In this document: piece by piece, positions 16,690 to 63,190 of the stretch
How positions within the stretch are numbered: the stretch's first letter is position 1
Layout of the letters: each line of letters begins with the position of its first letter
Assembly (NCBI GenBank): GCA_010405405.1
Contig: MU004235.1
Span: 1,254,538 to 1,318,537 of the forward strand
Source: Microthyrium microscopicum
Taxonomy: Eukaryota
Length of the DNA: 64,000 nucleotides
Reading direction: 5' to 3'
Notes under the pieces: generated by a model
The model's database searches: none
The model's input: the letters and a program-made list of their open reading frames with translations, nothing else
Told to the model about the DNA's origin: nothing
Program-made: the position numbers and the translations under genes

Positions 16690-17277
16690 GATGAGGATTT
16701 GATGAAGAACTTGAAGATGGCAGTTGAAAGGATAACACAGATCTTGGAAATTGAAAGTGGTTGATCAATGAATTTGATGACTTTCGCTGTAAGTTTGTAA
16801 TGCAAGGCTTTTGTACTCCTGAATTGAAATTCCAGTATTACTTGACATATGTTCCTTCATGTCATGGGAAGCAACTAGGTTTATTGACCAAAGTAGCCGT
16901 TACCCGTCCCGGCCAAACACGTTGAATTTCTCCAGTTGCTTGTTCCTCGTACCCCAGATTATTGGATAGGTCTTTTACTATTAAACTCGGTAGCTTCAAG
17001 CCGATGTTGGAAAGGGTTTACAAGATGGAAACCTTACCCGGTCCAGGTATGGGCCACTTTTCCGCCTCTTGGCCAACCACCACTAAACACAACATGTGAA
17101 ACTAAATCAACATTTATGATGAGATCAATACTTGATACATACAACTAACTAGATACTGCCGCGTTATCCGTTTTTTTCGGCCATACTTGAGTCAAATATC
17201 GCTGTAACACCAAATTTGTCGACACATCCTATGAAGATCAATCACAAAAATCAAAACCGAAAACCAGAACCTGAAAA

Positions 17278-18521
17278 ATGAGTTCAGCTCCGAAAGTCGC
17301 TTTGGTGTTTGGTGCCAGTGGGGTAACAGGATGGAGTTTTGTCAATGAGATATTGAATGACTACCCCAAAAAGGGCATCTGGGGAAAGGTATATGCGCTT
17401 ACAAACAGACCCTTGAAAGAAGAGACCACCATTTGGCCCAAAGATGACAGGCTTGAAATCGTGTCTGGGATTGATCTTCTCAAAGGCAGCCAAGAAGACT
17501 TGGAGAAAGAGCTTAAGAGTAAAATCAAGGATATATCAAAAGTCACACACGTCTATTATCTTGGTAAGCTCACCAGCGAAATTTTAAAGAAAAGAAAGAA
17601 GCTAAATGTTTCGCAGCTTACAAGGCAAACCCTCATGACCTCAAGGCAGAATTAGACGATGCCGTCGCCATGTGGAGTCGCTCAACTATTGCCATGGACC
17701 ATATTAGCCCCAGTCTCGAATTCGTTATCCTCCAAACCGGCGCCAAAATGTATGGCTGCCATCTTCTCGAGAACCATCCCACTGACTACATCCACCCACC
17801 ACTTCACGAGAATCTCCCGCGACTCAAACAGCCTTATCACGATCAACTCTTCTACCACCCACAGCTGGACTGGGCTCACGATTACGCCAAAGGCAAGGCG
17901 TGGAAATGGTGCGACACACGCCCCGACATTATCATCGGCTTCCACCCGACGCCCAATTTTTACAGTCTCGGGCAAGTCCTCGGCATCTACATGACGCTCT
18001 TCCGAGCTGTTGAAGGCGCTGGCGCAGAGTGCCCATGGCCCGGCACTAAACAAAGTTGGGTAGCAAAGAGCCACGACTCTAGCAGTGATATGATTGCGCG
18101 TCAGACACTACATCTGTCACTGACAATTGATGACAAGTACAACGGCACAGGATTCAATGTTGGAGATGCAAAGCAATGGTATACATGGGAAACCAAGTGG
18201 CCGGCAATCTGCAAGTATTTCGGACTCAAGGGCGTCGGACCGGAAAGCGGGAAGGAGGGCACGGAGGTGAGAGCGTATATCAAGGAACATTTGGCGGAGT
18301 GGAAGAAGATAGAGAAGGAGCATGGCCTACAATCTGGGTTTGCGGACAGCGAGATGGTGATCCCTGGGTTTGAGTTCTTTTTGATCACGCAGTTCGATTT
18401 CGATCGTCAGTATGATATGACCAAGATGTATGATGTTGCTGGGTTCAAGGAGGAGCGAACTCCAGCGCAGACTTGGGGTGGAGTTTTCGACAGGATGAGA
18501 AAGGCAAAGATCATTCCATGA
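17278..18521 (+). CDS. SirQ-like / PRISE-family NAD(P)-dependent reductase, 2 exons
   Basis: VFGASGVTGW, LQTGAKMY, LFYHPQLD, TRPDIIIGF; intron about 17564-17616. Confidence 0.85.
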
Positions 18522-33090: not shown

Positions 33091-33466
33091 CCATTTGTAG
33101 ACACCGGAGTAAACCAGCTCCCACACGTCCCGTTGAGCGACCTTATTGCCCCTTTCTAAAGAAGACATATGTGATACTTTTCCGGTCCAATTAGTAGCTC
33201 AAACGAAGCCTAAGTAACAATCTCTTCCAGGCTCGCTATGACGATTTTCACTGTTACTTGGTCTCCTTAATCGTTGGCCTCATCCTGTCTTCACTCTTGC
33301 ACATAATCATGCCGTCACAAGTGCATTGATCCCCGCTGCGACTGGAACAAAAGCGGACAATCAGCGATGTATTATGCCACAATCAGATTTACATACCTTT
33401 GACAAGGTGACATTCCAAGAGCTTCAAGCGTTCGGCCAAACGAGCGGGCTCCGTGTCAGTGTTACG

Positions 33467-33545
33467 TTTGCCTTTTAATGCTTCAGTTTGCCTTTTAATG
33501 CTTCAGTTTGCCTTTTAATGCTTCAGTTTGCCCTTTAATGCTTCA
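33467..33545. repeat. Tandem 20-bp repeat TTTGCCYTTTAATGCTTCAG, about 4 copies
   Basis: Three perfect units and one unit with a single mismatch. Confidence 0.95.
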
Positions 33546-34064
33546 AGCAGGGTCTTCAACCAGGTCATCTTGTTGGTCACATCGTCTTTGTCCATGAGGA
33601 TAAGGTGGCCGTAACTGTAGCTGCCAACAAGGCGTATCGAGCAAGCTCCGTTCACTTCAATCATCCCGAGGCAACAATGTATATCTAGATGATACCTTTT
33701 TCTTGAAGCTAGAGTCCAGTGGGACAATCACGCCGTTGAAGCTTCTTATTCGAGATATCTTGTTACAAAGATGTGAATTTGATTGTGCATTCAAGCCAAA
33801 AGAGCGGCCAACCATGAAAGTTTGCCTGTACGATCTGCACAAAGCTTTCACAATCTAACTAAACGCAATAAAGAAAAGGATTATTCAGCCATGAATCTCT
33901 GTCTCTGTAAGGAATACTCTGTACGTACTCTTTACAGAGTAAGCCGACCTCCTCAATCGCTCCCGCATATCAAGAAGATATCAACCGTGCCCGCGTGCCT
34001 TGTACAAGACCATCGAAACGAGCCAACTTGATCCTTCTTCTCGGTAACAAGATAAATACAGCTA

Positions 34065-34142: not shown

Positions 34143-34651
34143 TCATGTACCCTTGATATCATCTCCCCACTCTATATTGATCCTCTGACACTCCTCGACG
34201 ATCGGCTGCCAAATTTTCTTGAATTCCTCGTTAAGCCGCTTCATTTCTTCATCATTGGGTTCAGGCTTGCCCGCCTCAGCCTGCATGGCTGTGTGAATTT
34301 CCTGAGCTATCAATGAACCATGAATCAGTGGATTGACCCCTTAGGAATCTAATAGTATTCGATGAGGCATACCTTTCTCGAACAAGCTCGGAGAAGCGGG
34401 ACTTGAGCGTTCAAGTTTATCCTAATGGAAGGCTCGCGTTCCGCGCGATAGGTCCTGTAAGTTTCGTATCCATTCATTACGATATTGTCTACTGTCTGTA
34501 CGTCGTCCTTTATGTCGCTGTAGTCAGAAGTTTTGGGTGTCTCGTAAAAGATACCCCCCTCCGTGTTGAGGAAGAGCTTCCAGGCGTGGGTGATGACTTT
34601 CCAATTGGATGGCTCGGATGGCTCGGATGGCTCGGACGGCTCGGATGCCAT
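34143..34651 (-). CDS. Orphan family member C, about 145 aa, 2 exons, N-terminal SEP repeats
   Basis: MASEPSEPSEPS...RACSRK|EIHTAMQAEAGKP...KIWQPIVEECQRINIEW..; acceptor choice (CTCAG at about 34302) is uncertain. Confidence 0.55.
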
Positions 34652-34737
34652 GTTTTTAGCTATAGAAAGACGGTCCGGGAATGTTTTGTCTGGGTTGAAT
34701 CGATGGATATAGAAAGCGATAATCGTATTGTTCAAGT

Positions 34738-39200: not shown

Positions 39201-40225
39201 ATGCAGTCAAGGGAACGAACGGCACTCATGGTTTCCACAAGCAATGCTGCATTTGAGAACCGAATCAGAAAACGGCTGTTCGAGATAAAAACAAACATCG
39301 TCAGGGTGGACCTCCTTCACCATACCGAGCCCAAAGTCGACGACCACTTCTCCGGCCTCCTCAACGACAACAATCCCGACAAGTCCAACAATGACAAGCC
39401 CAACAATGACAAGCTCGACAGCGATGCCACGCACTATGTCAATATGTGGGATGCCATTATGAAAAAATGGCTCAGTATCGACCTAATCACGAAAGACTCA
39501 TCTAGAGTTGCCGCGAGAAAGCTCTTCGAAACCTTGGAAAGACTAGATACATAGTTGCGTCCTGGTAAGTTGTGGAAGAGCCAACACAATAAATGCGTAA
39601 GCTGACGGATGTGCCAAAACAAGTCCCAGAAGAAGGCAAAGAGGTTAAGTGGAATCGAGACGACAAGATTACAGATGAAGCAGCCCAAAATCGTTTTCAA
39701 TGCTTCGAATCGAAGTGGAAGGTACTCGAAGAAAACATGCAGTACATTGACAAACTCGTTGATGAGGTTAGAATATGCGAATTTGGCGCTTTAACCCATG
39801 CGAAGGCCGCGGTTCCAGAACCAGAGGCGGAGACCGCAGTTCCGAATCCACCTGCGTCTATCAAGTCCAAGCATCCTCCGGCAGAGGATGATGCTGAAGG
39901 CGAAAATGATGAGGAAACGTCGGAGTCCTTCAAGTCAACAAAGGCCAAGCGTTCCACTCCCCAGGTTACAAACCAGCCCGTCTCACAAAAAGATGACGAA
40001 GACGAAAATGATGGGAAAACATCCAAGGTGTTCAAGTCAAAAAGAGCCAAGCCAGGGCCCAAAGGACAGCCCAAAGCCGACAAATGCGCACACTGTCTCA
40101 ATCAAGAGTACTTCTGTGACCGAAACTTATCAAGCAATGACTCGAATGTCCCGTGCTCAAAGTGTCGCAGGTGGAACAAAGTATGTCGAACACAAGAAGA
40201 ACACGAACATCGCAAGAGGAAGTAA
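39201..40225 (+). pseudogene. Gene with a C-terminal Zn(II)2Cys6 cluster, interrupted by an in-frame TAG (39552-39554)
   Basis: CAHC-x6-C-x12-CSKC-x6-C at 40085-40186; intron 39565-39623 joins both ORFs in frame except for one TAG. Confidence 0.55.
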
Positions 40226-49806: not shown

Positions 49807-51239
49807 TCAGAACTGAGGTATAATGCCGGCCGACTTGAATCGGTCAAATGCCGTGTACCAAGCATCCTTAAAAGTTGTGCTGAGCTGTTCCTTATCTGAC
49901 CAGACTTCATTGAACTTTGACATGTCTAGATGCCGATCAAAGTTGAACATGGTCATGATAAAATATGGGAAACCCCCAAACGTCCTCTGGTTGCCCACAC
50001 GGCCCTTGACCAACTTGTATTTTTCTTCAACCTTTTGCCATTCAGAAGCATTTTCCTCCAGATATTGGGTGGGTTGCGGCCCAGATCCACCAGCGGGTGG
50101 TGCTACTCCTTTCAATCCAAAATACGAGCAAATCACTGGCCATTTTTCTGACCATGAACTAGGTTCGCTGACCGCAGTGTTGAAGCGCTGTCCGTCACCA
50201 CATTTCTTAGGATTGAGGGATGCGTAGATACTGAAACAAGCAATCTGGTCTTGAGGACTATCATTGCTTAGAATCTTCCAAGATTCAGAAGTTCCTGGGA
50301 AAGCCACTTCCGCATCTTTTCCATTATGGTAGCGGTAAAGCGAGAGATATAGACCTATGTCGTTGTTAGAACTCGCACATATCGCTCACACTGCCTCCTA
50401 GTCTTACCAAGAATCTGAGGTAGGCAATAGATGTTGTTATTTGGGACAAACCCAATGATGACATCCGGACTGAATCCGTTAGAATGTTAAGCATTAAATG
50501 AGCAAATTTCTTACATGACCTCGCACCAGGACCAGCTCTTGCCTTTCGATGCTTTGGTGAGATAGTCGAGTTGGTCGTAGTAGAACATTTCCGATGCGTA
50601 TGGTTCAGGGATGCGCGGGAGGCTTTCTGCCATTGGCAATTGTTCTGGAAAAGGAAATTTTTCAATGAGGTGAACCCCGTATGCCTGGAAGTATTGTTAG
50701 TTCTCTTCTGCTTCAAGAATGATCTTGATACTTACCTTGGTGCCAGTTGGAAGGACTACAAAGGTCAAGTTTTTTGACAAATTCTCAATGGTTTTCACAG
50801 CTCTATCTATGAGAGTTACGTTGATCTCGCATTCTTTCTGCCAAATGTCAGACACAACAATTCACGGGACGACCAGTTTTGCATGCCTTGGGGTCGGGAT
50901 CCATCACATATGCTTTTCTTGTTAGCTTTTTGTCTCCATTCTTGAAAATGGTTTCTTACCGAAGAAAAACACATGCGACACTGTGTCAATATCCTTGACT
51001 TTCTCCTTAAGGTCCTTTTCAAGTCCTGCCTGTCCACCATCGTGCATCAAATTTGCGGTGGTCAACAACAACTTGTCGCTTTTGGGCCATAGCGTTTCTT
51101 CATGCTTCAATGGTCGGTTTGTTAGAGCTGTGATCCTGGAGAAGTCATTTGGCGAAGGATAGCCTTTCAAAAGCTGGTTGACAATTGCCCATCCTGTAAT
51201 GCCGCTTGCACCAAATATCAAGGCGTGGTTTCCGGTCAT
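49807..51239 (-). CDS. Second SirQ-like / PRISE-family reductase, multi-exon
   Basis: IFGASGITGW, MFYYDQLD, FNFDRHLDMSK; clearly homologous to the 17278-18521 gene. Confidence 0.85.
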
Positions 51240-51773
51240 TTTGTTCTCAGTTTCAAGTTTATAAAATGTAAATATATAGCTTGTTTATTAGTAGCACGAG
51301 AATTGATGGTTTTATGGTCTCCTATGGCGAAATGTATTCCGATGTTGGTCAACCTCACCCGTGTCTCATCCTCCTCACTATGTCACTGCACCCGGGACCT
51401 ACCAAGACTCCAGAAAATATTCAAATTCGACAGGGAACTAGTCGATCCTGGCCACATGTGATCTGAAGCCTTCCTGCTGATTTCTGTAAAGTTTTTGAGG
51501 AGGCAGCTTTGATAGGTGCATGTGGGATTAGCGCGGCTATTGACACCCGGCTTCTAGACAATCTCAAGGTTCGGATGCTTTGCAGTCTACAAAGCAACTC
51601 GGAAATGGACCTTGGCCGAGCCTAGTCCAGACCGAGAAGCTACTGTCCTTTAATGATGGTAATCGATCGGCTTATACCGGTAAAACACCATTTACATGAC
51701 CTGAAATACATACAACCACAGCCTCACCTGAATCACAGCAGCTTCAACTGACAAACAATTGACCAAATTCATA

Positions 51774-53619: not shown

Positions 53620-54489
53620 TAATACATCCTATAAAATCTAATGTATTAGTACTAGTACGCTTTAATAATTCGGATACTCTCTGGTGAGAGGCTTATTAAC
53701 GAAGAAGCTAAGAATAAATAGCAAGTCGAACGCCCTTAGACATAATTCCGTGCTTACAAAGTTTGCCACCTAGAAATGGTCATTTAAAGAGCAAAGGAGA
53801 ATTCATTTAATAAAGATTCTAATGAAAGTGATAGTGCCTGTAACCCTGACCGTTAAGCCTGAACCAGGAAGGTGGCTATTAACACTAGAGCGAGGAGGCT
53901 GTTTGACAATGCCTCCTTCGGCAAGCTGTCGCATTATCTGCGATGCGCTTTCGACAATCCTTTGCGATGTGATCTGTCCTACCGCAGTGAACGAGGGTTT
54001 CCACCACTCCCCATGTGACATGACCTGCTTGATTGCCGTGACTAGAGACATGATTGTAGTACTCAAGTCCCGCATCAGCTTGAGACAATCGATGGTGAGA
54101 TGATCGCAGATAGGTATAGCCAACGGCCATTCGCGGTCTTACCGCCTTGCTCAGCTTGTTCTTTTTAAGGAGTCGCGGTCTACAAAGAGTTCGATATGAG
54201 CCGGATTTGGAGAAGCCACCTACATTTTGGTTGAGACCCGAGGATCAATGGTTGGTGCCCTGAGGTTTTGGCTTGTGGAATCGATATTGATGATGAGAGT
54301 GTCGACAGCGAGGATTTGCTGGTGAACGTGGTGTTGGAGTCTAGCGTATGGATCCGTCGTCCTGTGAGCACTGAGGGGATGACTGGAGGCTCAGATTGAG
54401 AATGGCCACCAAGTCCGCAATAGAAAAAGGCGCGCGGTGGAGTAGCCTTCGAAGGTGGACTCATTCTAAGGAGCAAACTTCCTATGCGC

Positions 54490-56570
54490 AGGAAGCGCCC
54501 AAGATACCTAAAGAAAGATATCGGACTATTATACATATGCTCTGTTTAAGGTTCTGAACAAGATTTAAGACGTCCGTAGTGGAAATAAAGCGTCTGGTAC
54601 TTGTAAAGTAGCATTCAAAGATGCTTGTAGGCTCATGTTAGGGTGCGAACTTCCTACACTTACTCTGGAAGCGCTCAAGACACCTGAAGAAAGATATCGG
54701 ACTATTATACATATGCTCTATTGAAGGTTCTAAACAAGATTTCAGACATCCGTAATAGAAATATAGAGTCCGGTATTGGTAAAGTAGAACTCAAAGGTAG
54801 GCTCATTTTACTAGAAGCGCCCCAAACACTTGAAGAAAGATATCGGACTAGTACATATATGCTTTATCCAACGTTATGAACGAGATTTACGACGTCCGTA
54901 GTGGAAATAAAGTGTCCGGTAACCGTATAGTGGCATTTGAAGGTGGGCTCAATCTAGAGAGCTTCCTATACGCTGGGAGCGCCCTAAATACCTACAGAAA
55001 TATATCGGACTATTATATATATGATCTAGCTAACGGTGTAAGCGGATTTAAGAAGTCCGCAATGAAAACAAAGCGTCCGGTAATTGTACAGTAGCATTTG
55101 AAGGTGAGCTCAATCCATGAATTTTCAGCGAAGTTTCCATACGCAGGGAGCGCCACAAATAACCAAAACAAGGTATCGGACTAACGTTTTCATATTTGAT
55201 CTAACAGTATGAACAAATGTCGAGACGTCCGGCAAAAACAGTGATATTATAGAGCTTTTCCCTGGTAGTTGGGTTGGTGTCCTACTCTCCTGGTTTAAGC
55301 AGGAGAGACATTTCTTCGTAGTCGCCAGGAAATGTTCCCAGAGTCTTGCAAAATTTATCGGACTCTCGGATATATAACTGACTTGGTATTCCTTACTAAG
55401 TGAAGTCGGTCCGAAATAAAGAAAGATCTTATAGAGATTTGTAGAAGGTCGAGTACCTCGTTAATTGCCAGTGGCTTTTGATGGAAGATGCTGCATGCAT
55501 TTTCTCTGGCTGGTAAAACTGGCTCCCAATCCAGATGCTGCTTGATCGCCAAATGATTCTCCAATCGGACTTTCAAAATATATACAACTTTGCAATCCTT
55601 ATCGGAAAAACTTAGTCCGATAGAAAGAAAGACCTTGTGGCGATTCGTGGGAGGTCGAGTACTTGCACTTTCACTCTTACAGCGCGCCGTATCTTGTTGG
55701 CTGCAATTGGCTGGTACGCTGGCTCCCAATCCAGATGCTGCTTGATCGCCAAAGGATTTTCCAATCGGACTTTCAAAATATATACAACTTTGCAATCCTT
55801 ATCAGAAAATCTTAGTCCGATAGAAAGAAAGACCTTGTGGCGATTCATGGGAGGTCGAGTACTTACACTTTCACTCTTACAGCGCGCCGTATCTTGTTGG
55901 CTGCAATTGGCTGGTACGCTGGCTCCCAATTCAGTTATTGCTTGATCGCCAAATAGTTTTTCTATCGGACTTTCAAAATGTGTATAGCTTGGCAATCTGT
56001 ACTAGATAGAAATAATCCGATAGAAGGAAAGACCTTGTGGCGATTCAAGGGAGGTCGAGTACCTTGTTGGCTGGCTCCATTTTGGTGGGAGGTGCATTTT
56101 CCTTCGTTGGTACTGTAACGCTTAATTGGTCAATAGTTTTCTATCGGACTTTCAAAATATGTATAGCTTGGGAATCCTTACAGGGTAGAATTGGTCCGAT
56201 AGAAATAAACATGAATGTGGCGGATTTCAGTCAAGTTCTTCGTTGGTTGGCTTTTGGGGAGATGCATTTTTAGCTGGACACGCCGGAGTTCAAAATGTTG
56301 CGGACATTTGACTGCCAAGGACTTTTTTCAATCGGACTGCGAAATATCTACGCAGTTTTACATTGCCTACATAATGCATTTAGTCCGAAATAAATCAAGC
56401 TCGTAGATGGGTGTGGTTCCGCAATTCCATACAGTTTTGTACTCTACATTGGCGTGTTTGGAAAAAATCGCCCACTATTTCTCCTTAACTCTAGAGATAT
56501 TTTCCGGACCGCCGGAGATGCATCCAATTCTACGTTCGTTACGAGATGCTCTAGGTCCGACTCGTCCGAA
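54490..56570. repeat. Array of 12 diverged units, each containing CGGAC-N44/45-(G/A)TCCG; period 146-207 bp
   Basis: CGGAC starts at 54522, 54698, 54844, 55006, 55177, 55359, 55566, 55766, 55966, 56145, 56333 and 56505; includes near-identical 200-bp duplications at about 55520-55980. Confidence 0.9.
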
Positions 56571-56654: not shown

Positions 56655-58960
56655 CTACAACTTCGCTTCAACTCCAAGCCCAGTAAGTATCTCCTCTACC
56701 GCCTGATTTATAACTACTCCAGTCTTCTGTACCTGTGCAATGTTAGCGAGTAATCAAGGTGGAAAATGATCAAGATTACCAGTGGTTGCTGCATCATCAA
56801 ATAGTGCGTCCCTTCTACTACTATAGTCTGCACCGTAGATCCGAGCAGCTTCTCCCATCCATTGGGTCCAAAAGAGCTCTTTTCAGCAGCTCCCCAGCCT
56901 GCGCCAGGCATTCCACCATCTTTGAAGCGTTGCGGCATTGATCCACCCTTTTTCATGCATGCGAGTAACTCTTTTGCAGCCGTAGTGTTAATGCTTTGCA
57001 TCTCAAAGTTGGTGTAGCGTGCTAGAATAAGAAAGGTCTTGAACGGAACAATTTCTTGATGCCATGCCTTGCCACGGTATTTGCACAACATGTTGTGGCT
57101 CATGACAATATTCTGCCTACTTTTCAATGGGACATCTATGCCTCTCACCTGATTGCTCGCTGTCACCAGCTCCAAGTTCACCTGCTCCGCACCGAACATG
57201 ATTGATGGACTTGCTGAGTCGATTATGATGAGACCGATTACTTTTCTCCCAGCCAAAGAAAGAAGTCTTGAGACTTCATAAGCCATGGTGCCACCAAGTG
57301 ACCATCCACCAAGCAGGTAAGGGCCGTGAGGACGAATCCGAATAATCTCTTCCAAAATCATTGGCGCAACCTCTTCAATGGTGTGGTCATCGGAGGGATT
57401 GTCTACAAATGGAGACGGTAGAGCATACACCGGAATATGAGAGTGGAACTGCGGTAGCTGCACGTATGAAGTGGCGGATCCTTCTCCGTCGGCAAGAAGG
57501 AAAAAAGCTGGTTGCTGGGATTCTGAGGTTCCCTGCAGAAGGAAGGAATACACCTTGGGCTCCAACCGCCCAGGCTGTTCGGGTGAAACTGTAGAACGCA
57601 TAGGCTGGACTACCGACGGAAACATCTTCTCCAACTTCTCTTTCATAGCGGTCAAGGTTGGATATTCACGAAAGCACGTTGTAGGAAGTTCAGTACCTGT
57701 TTGCTCTTTGAGCACTCGTAAAATAACTACGGCTTGCATCGAGCTTAGCCCAAGTTCCTCGAAAGTTTTGTCTGGAACTCCGGCTTTGAAGAGATCTTGG
57801 ACCTTTATCTGAATTTGTCTGGAGAGTGTATCGACAAAGACTTTGAATGGATCCCCTGTGGCAGCGTCGACTTTGGAAGCTCGATTGCGATCTTGTGGTG
57901 CCTCTATGTCTTGAGACATTTCAAGTTCCATATCAAGTTCAATCCCCATTTTCATGAGCATGGCAGCACATTGAAAGAATGTGGTTCTCGAGTCCTGTAC
58001 ATCGTCGATGGTGTGCAAAATGTATTTCTGATCCACTTCCAAAGTTGCTCTCACAAAGCTGCAACATGCTGATCCGGGACCCAGTTCAAGCCACACAGCC
58101 TCCTCCTCCGGCTTTGCCCAACTTCTGGTAGCTTTAAGTGCTTCGGAGAATTGCACAGGCACTCTTTCCACGGAAGCAGTATACTCGTAAGTAATAATTT
58201 CCGCTTCGGTCACTACTTTGCCCAAGACTGTTGAGGCGATAGGAATCCTTGGTCGATTGAAAGTCAGAAGTTTTGCAGTTTTTCGAATTTCTTCCATTGC
58301 TGGCTCCAGCTGCCGGGTGTGGTAAGCATATTGCATTGGCAATTCGACGGTTTCAATGCGATTTGCCATTAGAGCTGCTCGTAATCGACGAATCTTTCCG
58401 GTTGGTCCGCCCACAACAATGCTCTTTTCGGAGTTGTAACAACAGACGTCGCAGAAGTCCCATTTGTGTCCTACGACCCGAATGACCGTGTCCACAGTTG
58501 CTCGTATGGCGAGCATAGCCTCGTCGTATGGTTCGCACCTACGTTCGATTATTTGACTTTGTCTACCGACAAAGAAGAACGTGTCGGTCAAGGATAAGAC
58601 GCCAGAGACACACAGAGCTGCAATGGAGCCTATGCTGTGTCCGATTACCATATCAGGTACCAATCCACGTCTTTCCAATTCCATAGCAAGAGCAACCTCC
58701 ATGGCAACAGTTCCGATTTTGACGACGATGTCATCAGGAGGTAACGAATCAGCCCCTATAAGCCATTTAATGAATGAAGGCAATCTCAACGACGTCACAA
58801 TCGTTTCCATCTCATCCAGAGATGCTCGAAAGGAAGTCGAGACTTGATACAGTTCTTTGGCCATCCCAGCATGATGAGAACCGAGGCCAGAAAACATGAA
58901 AACGACTCTGCTACCTTTGGCTGCAGCAAAAAGTGTCTTGCCAACTACAGGTGAAGACAT
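56655..58960 (-). CDS. KS-less PKS-derived tridomain acyltransferase-ACP-thioesterase; predicted C-terminus -AKL
   Basis: AT: FSGLGS, GHSIG, YAYHT, WLELGP; ACP: FEELGLSS; TE: LADGEGSATSY, GGWSLGG, GTHYLMM. Intron 56733-56779 (GTAATC..GCTAAC..CAG) gives ...LGVEAKL*. Confidence 0.85.
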
Positions 58961-59977
58961 TATCCAAAATTGAAGGGTTGATCAGCCAAGCTATTACTCT
59001 GCGTATCAGAAAGGACAAATCTTGAAACACAGTCTGATATCGTTCTTTGCTTTAAGAAAATTGTTACTGTTTCTCGTTAGTGAAGAGGATTCAAGCCAAG
59101 TTCAATGACATGATACCAAAAGGTTCGAGCTGCTAACATATAACTGGGCCAACAAACTGCGTTAGAGATGATGACGAGAGTGAAACCGGTCTACCATTAT
59201 TATTGTATGTACTGCTATTTTCGGGCACTCTCAAATATGTGGGCTTCCCCGAGGAGCTTTCACATTTACAACTCTCGCCTAGGTCAAGTTTGACCCTGTT
59301 GCATTCGCAGATCTTTTCTGCAAGGTGACACCATCTGATAGATGTGATGTGCTGGCCAACTGATAGACAAAATAAATCGCGTAACCCCATCGACTTCGAT
59401 AGCTCCTACACAACACGCTCTAGTATTAAGTACCTAGGTAATTTATTTATGATATATGGCGTCTAGATTAAGTATTTTATCGAGTGCGATAGAAATTATA
59501 ACACCTCTTCTTTAAAAGCGTTCGTAGGAGCCAGCGAAGTTGATGGATGAACGCCAGTTATTTTGTCATGCGGTTGCTGGCGAACAAACTGCAAAGGTCG
59601 TACAGAAATGATAAGCTTCACGGAGTGGAATCGGGCACTGAGATCTGCAAGCGCCTGCATATGCGTCTGCATTAGTACTCAAGTCCAGCTGTATCGGGTT
59701 TTCACTTGCGCAAAGTGATAATTTCTTTGTTCTCTGCATCGAGATACATAATATTTCCTGATTTACAGCCTTGGAATGATTGATCAACACTCAGCACTCG
59801 GACCATCCGCCTACCGTAGGCTATGCCTGGGCATGGGTTGGGTTGGGTATGGTATGGGTTTCGTAAGTTATTTTCAAAAGGGCCGTCGCACGCTATAGAG
59901 TAGTACTCAAGAAACTCAGATCTTTCCAAGGTTGACCCCGTGGTCGCGCTCATTGACTTAATCAATTCATTGATATC

Positions 59978-61804: not shown

Positions 61805-63190
61805 TCAAATCCAAGAAACTCTTTGTGGAAAAGGTGGCATAGTTAAGAACATGGAAACCAAATATTGAGGATAGCCGCGCCGACCAAAATACCATTCGAT
61901 CTGATGCCGGACTCCGATTTTTCTTTTCTCAATGTCTTCGATGTCCTTACAAGTTTCAAGAAAGAGCGGGAAGTGAGCTTGATCGTCGACGCTCATCGAG
62001 TTCCAAGCGTCGATAGTTTTGGTGTCTTCAAAGACATAAGATGTTCCACCGGCAATTTTGAAAATGCGAGCTATTGGATGTAGATCCGTCGAATTCCAGT
62101 CTATACTCTTCCACTTCAGCACTGGTGTCCATGGTAGAGCGCGCATTTTCATTGCCTTCTCCCAAATGTCACCAAATGATCGAACCGCCCTCTGTCCTGC
62201 TACGGCATGGATACACCCGCGAGTACGCAGTGCAGTGTGCACAAGGATCCGATTCACAACCACATCGACGGGAACTTCGTCAATTTTGCTCTGAGCTGCA
62301 GGATCATCAAAAGGTGATGCCCAGGTCATGCTCATTGACGTGCAAAGCACGCAGGCAGCAAGCATACCAGTTGCTGGCGCTGATCCTCGGATCTCATAGT
62401 AGGGATAAGGCTCTCTAAGGGCAGGCCCAATAATAGAGGGCCTCACAATCAACAGCTGATCCACGTTGGCCGAGAAGTATTCAGTAAGTATTCTCTCTGT
62501 AAGGTTTTTGGCGTATGAGTAAGGGTACGGGAAATTCGCTTTTTCAAAAGCAGTTGTGGAACCGGTTGCCAATAGTTCTTCGAGTTCCTGCTCTGGCTCA
62601 ACAGGAGAAAGGGGATATATCTTCTCACTTATTGTAGTTTCAACATACTCGTTGACCATATGCAGGTGCGCGTTTGAATAGGCCGTTGAGATGTAAACGA
62701 ATCGATCAACTCTCGGAGAGGCGATAGCCAGCTTTGCTAATTGAAGAGTTGGATATATGACGCTTTTTGCTATCTTCGGCAATGGATGAATGAGATTGAT
62801 AGACGATGCTGTATGGATAATGATGGAGCATTCCGATAAGGCTTGAAGAGCGTCCTGATTGAGACCTAAGCTTTGCTGGGTAAGGTCTCCATTTACAGCG
62901 TAGATGCGCCTACTATTGCGCAATCGTTCCCACGTTTGCAATGGCAAAGCTGATTGAAGCTGGCTCCACAGCCGTCTGCTTTCAAATTAGCACGTTCAAG
63001 ATCTGCTGTACAAGGAGAATTTCCCGTAGACTTACTGCTCCCCCCCTCGAACCAATGCAACGACCTTTTCACATGGCGTTGACATGACTAACTTGCAAAG
63101 CAGAGCGCATCCAACAAACCCTGTTGCCCCAGTCAGAAACACGTTACGACCCCGATAGTAAGAAGTGTTGAGCTGTGCCATGTGCTCCAT
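61805..63190 (-). CDS. Fatty acyl-CoA reductase (male sterility 2 / NAD_binding_4 family), 2 exons
   Basis: FLTGATGFVG, IIHTASSI, YISTAY, YSYAK, IVRPSII, VPVDVVVN; intron about 62976-63035. Confidence 0.85.

Follow-up and report, generated by a model that had tools for sequence, protein, structure and literature searches.

Organization of the locus

The region analysed here is a stretch of 64,000 nucleotides of contig MU004235.1 from the fungus Microthyrium microscopicum (in the following, the window; positions are counted from its first letter), and our subject is a tandem array of inverted CGGAC...RTCCG sites that lies beside one of its biosynthetic genes. The window is a gene-dense eukaryotic stretch with fungus-like GT..AG introns of 45–63 nt, and it encodes a helicase, a flavin monooxygenase, an adenylating enzyme, dehydrogenases, P450s, two PRISE-like reductases, a transporter, a protease, an acyl-CoA dehydrogenase and a kinase-like gene. 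The array (54405..56570) comprises a truncated first unit and 12 full units, all arranged head-to-tail and, like the dyads within them, not assigned to a strand. It occupies the interval that separates a zinc-knuckle-like pseudogene fragment from the stop codon (56655–56657) of a minus-strand gene (56655..58960) whose spliced product of 752 amino acids (aa) contains an acyltransferase, a carrier domain and a thioesterase (AT-ACP-TE) according to Pfam. Unit 12 starts about 90 nt past this stop codon.

Structure of the array

A search of the window for CGGAC-N40..50-RTCCG returned 23 strand matches, compared with 1.16 expected from 100 shuffles (standard deviation 1.33, largest count 5). All but one of these matches (22 of 23) make up 12 sites located between 54522 and 56559; the remaining one is found at 34624–34677 on the minus strand. 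Ten of the 12 sites are palindromic and match on both strands, while units 2 and 9, in which the right arm is ATCCG, match on the plus strand only. The twelve units that had been noticed in an earlier inspection of the letters (the sequence-only reading) were thus borne out, and a recount also confirmed their constant 54–55-bp span, the periods of 146–207 bp and the occurrence of TCGGACT in 11 of the 12.

The array opens with a truncated unit 0, of which the right arm GTCCG (54413..54417, plus strand) and its purine-rich tail are present and the left arm is absent. The full dyads follow at 54522..54576 (unit 1, CGGAC..GTCCG), 54698..54752 (unit 2, CGGAC..ATCCG), 54844..54898 (unit 3), 55006..55059 (unit 4), 55177..55231 (unit 5), 55359..55413 (unit 6), 55566..55619 (unit 7), 55766..55819 (unit 8), 55966..56019 (unit 9, CGGAC..ATCCG), 56145..56198 (unit 10) and 56333..56387 (unit 11). 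Unit 12 (56505..56568) contains a dyad at 56505–56559 and a second GTCCG at 56564–56568. The dyad span is 55 bp in seven units (1–3, 5, 6, 11 and 12) and 54 bp in the other five, and the unit-to-unit periods are, in order, 176, 146, 162, 171, 182, 207, 200, 200, 179, 188 and 172 bp. The inverted orientation CGG...CCG is found in all 12 units, with a spacer between the two triplets of 48 bp in five of them and 49 bp in seven.

The 8-mer ATCGGACT occurs 11 times in the 64 kb, always within the array and each time as a left arm. The shorter word TCGGACT occurs 12 times in the window, 11 of them in the array; unit 12 carries TCCGGACC instead, and the left arm of units 7 and 8 is TCGGACTTTCAA. The bases that flank the left arm (A at −2, T at −1 and T at +1) are retained in 11 of the 12 units, near-invariant A/T positions are seen 7–12 nt downstream of CGGAC in the 12-unit alignment, and the right arm is followed by a purine-rich tail. 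In units 1–5 the conserved left-arm flank bases are without a pairing partner; in units 9 and 10 the arms lengthen to 12-nt inverted repeats of the TTTCTATCGGAC type. The G+C fraction is 0.32 in the dyad interiors, 0.43 in the linkers and 0.46 in the window. Additional solitary half-sites are present in the linkers (GTCCG at 54413, 54768, 54914, 55075 and 56564; CGGAC at 56301), which amounts to 6 per 1,383 linker bases, versus 0.74 per kb outside the array.

When the array was compared with the whole window by BLAST, its copies were confined to 54411–56270, and no copy of any unit was found in the rest of the window. The array is not an assembly artefact, because RNA-like contigs from sequencing run X5 and DNA contigs from runs X6 and X8 match pieces of it without a single other letter. 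Unit 5 is covered by X5 record 2, unit 6 by the same record and by contigs from X6 and X8, and units 9, 11 and 12 lie within X5 record 3.

Descent of the units and conservation of motif and spacing

The 12 units with 50-nt flanks were aligned, and a tree was calculated from the non-motif columns only. Mean column identity is 56%, and CGGAC and TCCG are the sole invariant blocks of the alignment. The tree has a length of 5.58 substitutions per site and separates U1–U5 from U6–U12 with a support of 0.999. On this tree, a neutral column stays invariant with P = 0.0078, so 1.15 invariant columns are expected among 147; we observed 11, nine of them within the CGGAC and TCCG blocks, and an invariant run of at least five columns did not appear in any of 200,000 neutral simulations. 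The distance between the arms is retained as well. The interiors contain two gap runs of 1 nt each in 90 columns, compared with 22 gap runs of 1–30 nt in 312 linker columns, 18 of which are longer than 1 nt. At the linker rate, 6.3 interior gap runs would be expected (hand calculation; Poisson probability of two or fewer, about 0.05).

The motif and the spacing of its arms are under constraint. The sequence-only reading had proposed selection on the pentamers and their geometry, and the data support it in both respects, nine of the 11 invariant columns being in the blocks and the interior indels being rare and of a single nucleotide. The comparison by which that proposal was to be tried, namely whether pentamers and spacing are conserved any better than the rest of the unit, was run and failed to refute it. 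In common with an ordinary non-coding minisatellite, the array has head-to-tail units of 146–207 bp, a similarity that declines with distance and frequent indels in the linkers, but here two short blocks and the distance between them have escaped the decay that saturates the rest. The invariance of the motif blocks and the rarity of interior indels relative to the linkers show that this is not a plain decaying minisatellite.

Outside the blocks the units are far diverged, but their interiors are related through descent. Ungapped interior identity is 0.50–0.91 within U1–U5 and 0.68–0.95 within U7–U10, and 0.36–0.57 between U6, U11 or U12 and U7–U10, compared with a mean of 0.30 and a 99th percentile of 0.45 for shuffled interiors; U1–U5 and U7–U10 interiors compared with each other are mostly at chance level (0.25–0.50). 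The earlier description of the interiors as variable therefore holds as far as divergence is concerned but not in the sense of unrelatedness, given that within-group identities exceed the shuffled mean. Likewise, the two subfamilies that it recognized do exist, but their membership, given as units 1–5 and 6–10, has to be redrawn from BLAST and the tree as U1–U4, with U5 as an outlier, and U7–U10, with U6, U11 and U12 as outliers. The left linker of unit 5 is of the U1–U4 type and the right linker of unit 6 of the U7–U10 type. The farther apart two units lie in the array, the less similar they are. The units are ancient and locally amplified, and the array is a local one.

Two mutational explanations for the pattern were considered and rejected. 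Repeat-induced point mutation is ruled out by an ordinary spectrum of 139 transitions to 85 transversions, and decay of methylated CpG by observed/expected CpG ratios of 1.26 in the interiors, 0.75 in the linkers and 0.82 in the window. With an ordinary spectrum and no depletion of CpG, neither process explains the pattern.

The array as a transcribed 3' untranslated region

Run X5 was taken to be RNA by guess, and we rely on its spliced joints, 13 of 15 of which end in GT..AG or CT..AC, in keeping with the orientation of the genes. Record 3 of this run (2,013 nt, without other letters) joins 58021–56777, 56729–56182 and 56120–55901, so that it spans AT-ACP-TE coding sequence, units 12 and 11, part of unit 10, and unit 9, with two minus-strand introns removed. 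The first, a 47-nt GT..AG intron (56733..56779; joint 56729/56777, cut +3), lies towards the end of the coding sequence. The second, a 61-nt GT..AG intron (56121..56181; joint 56120/56182), starts in the interior of unit 10, whose left arm is spliced out with it. Units 5 and 6 are included in X5 record 2. A further joint of this run, 55796/55666, seems to go back by 131 nt; since 55666–55730 is identical to 55866–55930 through the 200-bp repeat, the joint can be re-read as a candidate 69-nt intron (GTAAGT..AAG; 55798..55866, minus strand).

A long, intron-containing 3' untranslated region (UTR) of AT-ACP-TE thus takes in no less than the right two thirds of the array. The bins at 54411–55212 (units 1–4) have little or no X5 cover, from which we draw nothing, and since contigs give neither RNA levels nor transcript ends, we claim none. 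The sequence-only reading had not recognized the array as the transcribed 3' UTR of its neighbour, and a 3' UTR of such unusual length, with introns in it, matters to anyone who annotates or expresses the cluster.

The idea that the array extends the coding sequence of AT-ACP-TE, or codes for protein otherwise, was rejected: stops are found in every frame of the spliced RNA, Pfam is silent, and the 200-bp period is not a multiple of three. The earlier remark that the frames checked contain stops does not, however, hold for every frame of the unspliced DNA: on the minus strand, the 200-bp units can be read without a stop for 129 and 147 codons.

A putative DNA docking platform

Our preferred, although tentative, reading of this pattern is that the array may be an iterated platform on the DNA at which a factor specific for CGG half-sites docks; the odds that we give it are below even. 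According to this model, selection would have kept one composite site in each unit of a tandem repeat that is old and was amplified locally, the site being formed by the strong half-site ATCGGACT and the weaker inverted RTCCG with 48–49 bp between the triplets. The two half-sites flank an AT-rich interior of fixed length (32% G+C), with the purine-rich tail following. A protein as the reader, DNA as the level at which it acts, and its role are all inferences; the most concrete candidate would be a zinc-cluster (Zn2Cys6) protein of the fungal kind that recognizes triplets singly, two bound copies of which might cooperate in each unit across the bendable interior. Located between the 3' end of AT-ACP-TE and the next minus-strand transcription unit, such a platform could serve as a clustered regulatory, insulating or terminating element.

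Several features speak for recognition at the DNA level. A CGG triplet with specific flanks is a hallmark of fungal zinc-cluster sites, and half-sites of this sort are known to be bound by protein, as in the case of Pho7 (see below). The spacing tolerance of 1 bp together with the AT-rich interior suits protein geometry on bendable DNA. The asymmetric conservation of the left-arm flanks is more than a bare stem needs, and both it and the extra solitary half-sites in the linkers are counted for this reading, as are the constrained motif and spacing, a covariation of the arms that does not exceed that of shuffles, the absence of a conserved interior fold and that of an Rfam match. Of the proposals made in the sequence-only reading, an iterated protein-binding platform remains the best, with a zinc-cluster CGG reader as a plausible occupant; its transposase or recombinase variant was not supported.

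Several observations weigh against the docking platform. We know of no factor that reads inverted half-sites 48–49 bp apart, and in the known homodimeric zinc-cluster sites the spacer is short enough for one coiled-coil dimer to span (about 20 bp at most), a limit that the array's 48–49 bp clearly exceeds. The array follows a gene and falls within a spliced transcript, not in a place that is obviously a promoter. TCGGAC/GTCCGA is not enriched elsewhere in the window (13 occurrences outside the array versus 21.6 expected) and therefore does not look like a cluster-wide regulatory word. A zinc-cluster gene was recognizable in none of the 93 open reading frames (ORFs) of at least 110 aa in the window; the only six-cysteine pattern with zinc-cluster spacing (40085–40186, plus strand) gave an E-value of 0.57 with Pfam Zn_clus and was not accepted. 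The full 12-mer read by the yeast protein Pho7, which is discussed below, fits only four of the 24 half-sites and occurs six times in the other 61.75 kb. In transcribed DNA, an RNA stem would be expected to show up as just such inverted arms, and each of the two core substitutions (units 2 and 9) retains a G-U pair when read in the minus strand, which is the transcribed one. Finally, neither Rfam nor a scan of metagenomes yielded a relative.

A more specific version, which we regard as a long shot, is that the array represents a long-lived fungal 'dyad array', in which twelve or more CGG half-site pairs of locked geometry, each across an AT-rich interior of 45 bp, separate a biosynthetic gene from its neighbour as a protein-bound barrier. 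It might act as a roadblock for RNA polymerase II, as a terminator or as an insulator that is itself transcribed, resembling the Su(Hw) sites of gypsy but built of dyads, whose spacing has, to our knowledge, no precedent in any zinc-cluster factor. If a factor does bind the dyads, it would be a naturally occurring reader of DNA (or RNA) that gauges a distance of about 50 bp from one word of 5–8 nt to another, with its site repeated a dozen times and kept while everything else was randomized. It would widen the known grammar of fungal CGG-triplet sites and provide a handle on the insulation or termination of single genes in a biosynthetic cluster.

Comparison with known systems

The closest single half-site is that of Schizosaccharomyces pombe Pho7, which binds as a monomer to TCG(G/C)(A/T)xxTTxAA and whose site at tgp1 begins with TCGGAC (PMC5559640, PMC6265462). 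Like the array, this site has a single CGG triplet embedded in TCGGAC, which in the case of Pho7 one protein molecule reads together with its flanks, and the left arms of units 7–10 fit all of the specified positions of the 12-mer. In contrast, 20 of the 24 half-sites miss the downstream TT..AA, and 11 of the 12 left arms share TCGGAC only. Moreover, the host is a different, intron-rich fungus, in which no Pho7-like gene was found, although no search was aimed at one.

The paired-triplet Zn2Cys6 sites of Gal4, Put3, Ppr1, Leu3 and Hap1 (PMC6265462) resemble the array in their inverted CGG...CCG triplets and fixed spacer, and for this class the fixed spacer is the rule of specificity. However, the 48–49-bp spacer of the array is several times longer than any known to us for the class, its arms are unequal (an 8-mer and a 5-mer), and the sites come in twelve tandem copies and behind a gene instead of in front of it.

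In general layout, the array can be compared with the gypsy insulator of Drosophila, which contains 12 Su(Hw) sites within 340 bp of the 5' untranslated region; the cores are separated by AT-rich bendable DNA, and both the number of sites and the bending of the DNA matter (PMC2374998). Both have about a dozen short conserved cores in AT-rich DNA, a position in a transcribed untranslated region and a gag-like neighbour, but the array is six times longer and consists of 146–207-bp units with dyads in place of single cores. The organisms belong to different kingdoms, the motifs differ, and the comparison is one of layout, in which the gag link of the array is a weak lead. Among these nearest layouts (zinc-cluster pairs, Pho7 and Su(Hw)), none fits the array as a family.

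Searches for relatives were likewise negative. No Rfam family matched the window at the gathering score, the best E-value in the region being 0.21 for an unrelated viral element, and a transfer RNA (tRNA) scan of the window found no genes. Scanning metagenomes for a dyad plus the next left arm gave 24 loci, about the number estimated to arise by chance, and none of them is alike: 20 carry a single dyad, and the loci with more than one (L001, L009, L022 and L024) proved to be unrelated short-period or near-identical repeats and were rejected. L022 (2000–2380) and L024 (720–1114) have CGGAC/GTCCG-word repeats of their own (nested 88-bp palindromes; short TCGGACC-AAAG-TCCGA hairpins). In full-text literature searches, the portions of text that were returned contained no description of a comparable array, and the matches to ATCGGACT were primers only.

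Alternative explanations

Since minus-strand transcription carries the AT-ACP-TE messenger RNA on into the array, a role at the RNA level is a serious rival, and we consider it nearly as likely as docking on DNA. The arms would pair within the long 3' UTR, either closing loops of 44–45 nt or enclosing the linkers; possibly, the repeated RNA scaffold is read by an RNA-binding protein or controls 3'-end formation, stability or localization. The spliced path of X5 record 3, which runs from the coding sequence through units 12 and 11 and part of unit 10 to unit 9, places the arms in such an RNA. In minimum-energy folds, the arms pair in nine of the 12 units on the plus strand and in ten on the minus strand, and in U6–U10 linkers and arms fold as closed rods of −31 to −56 kcal/mol with z-scores of −2.1 to −3.8 on both strands. 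In contrast, the helix of units 1–5 has just 5 bp to close a loop of 44–45 nt (fold z-scores from +1.3 to −2.8), and RNAalifold finds no conserved structure in the interiors (covariation terms +0.12 and +0.61).

Only two substitutions are seen in the core of the arms, one in unit 2 and one in unit 9, and either gives a G-U pair on the strand that is transcribed; the inner pair of unit 12 is C-G where five units have U-A. Nine pairs were tested, two of which show one double change each, but four are invariant, and a covariation score as high as the observed 0.084 was reached by 51 of 500 shuffles. Wobble changes, moreover, occur on both strands (units 6 and 10 on the plus strand; units 2 and 9 on the minus strand). 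Pairing in RNA also leaves the conserved unpaired flanks and the solitary half-sites unexplained, and no Rfam family was matched.

Alternatively, the array may have no function at all and be a relic, derived by tandem amplification from a short palindromic element (miniature inverted-repeat transposable element-like or foldback) or from part of a retroelement leader, with the motifs as the portion that decays slowest. We regard this as unlikely. The arms of units 9 and 10, as 12-nt inverted repeats of the TTTCTATCGGAC type, do resemble short terminal inverted repeats, the left neighbour has a weak zinc-knuckle signature, and the drop in similarity with distance is that of ordinary unequal crossing-over. 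However, neutral decay on the array's own tree cannot leave nine clustered invariant columns, the ordinary substitution spectrum (139:85) leaves no room for a repeat-induced mutation that spares particular words, and CpG is not depleted. In addition, the window holds no further copy of a unit, no paralogous contig fell on the array in the sequencing runs, and no homologue of the zinc-knuckle ORF was found among longer proteins. Even as a relic, the array would be a clean case of strongly uneven decay that needs explanation.

The sequence-only reading had also suggested that the units are subterminal sites of a transposase or recombinase and mark the end of a mobile cargo block. The general picture of many inverted short sites in a non-coding stretch beside a biosynthetic cluster agrees with this idea, which we nevertheless judge quite improbable. 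None of the 93 ORFs of at least 110 aa in the window matched a transposase, a tyrosine or serine recombinase, an integrase or a reverse transcriptase, and no copy of the array exists elsewhere in the 64 kb, so that the proposed subterminal sites are unsupported. The same is true of the proposed edge of a cargo block: a mirror array and inverted repeat pairs of at least 40 nt were sought in the window, and none was found. The flanking genes are ordinary, expressed and spliced, and a transposase acting in trans would not preserve units that are so diverged.

The last possibility, that the units are small genes for snoRNA-like (small nucleolar RNA) or guide-like RNAs with a variable interior between constant handles, or for a repeated peptide precursor, might account for the constant ends around a diverged interior of fixed length and for the two minus-strand frames of the 200-bp units that stay open for 129 and 147 codons, but it is hardly credible, as the array has no C box on either strand and CTGA in a few units only, Rfam and tRNA matches are lacking, the interiors share descent without acquisition-like novelty and share no stretch of more than 12 nt with the rest of the window, and a peptide precursor is contradicted by the 200-bp period, which is not a multiple of three, by stops in all frames of the spliced RNA and by the absence of a Pfam match.

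Neighbouring genes and other features of the window

The left neighbour of the array, in DNA of non-coding appearance, is an ORF on the minus strand (53888..54244) with a partial zinc knuckle, for which the Pfam zf-CCHC match (E-value 0.0053) is below the cut-off. It has an Atlas score of 0.87, which is taken as a lead only, and no homologue was found among proteins of 210–2000 aa; as a weak lead, the ORF is possibly a relic of a retroelement gag gene. Beside it, at 53741–53886, an X5 contig maps at well under 95% identity (hand count of differences), which suggests an expressed paralogue elsewhere. A low-depth X5 joint on the minus strand (53627/54223) skips 595 nt and links the DNA at the left edge of the array to an ORF with a weak match to DUF7371; the joined frame carries a stop.

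On the other side of the array, the AT-ACP-TE protein is without a ketosynthase domain and thus has an unusual stand-alone architecture for loading and release. Its gene (56655–58960, minus strand) is adjoined by genes for a P450 (59938–61700, plus strand) and an NAD_binding_4 reductase (61805–62986, minus strand). Three plus-strand X5 joints with GT..AG ends (58022–58084, 58187–58235 and 58401–58454) lie inside the uninterrupted minus-strand ORF of AT-ACP-TE and look like a spliced antisense transcript.

Between the start of AT-ACP-TE and the P450 gene, about 56 bp (59512–59567) are matched by many X5, X6 and X8 contigs at less than 95% identity. This is a dispersed short repeat with inverted arms GCGTTC..GAACGC, and the contig matches are loose-ended on both sides. 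Other repeats in the window include a 20-bp tandem repeat at 33446–33565, seen as five overlapping 40-nt copies, and a 60-nt family that recurs about every 2 kb (30721, 32858 and 34742). The two genes for PRISE-like reductases (17275–18518, plus strand; 49810–51284, minus strand) are possibly paralogues that serve the cluster.

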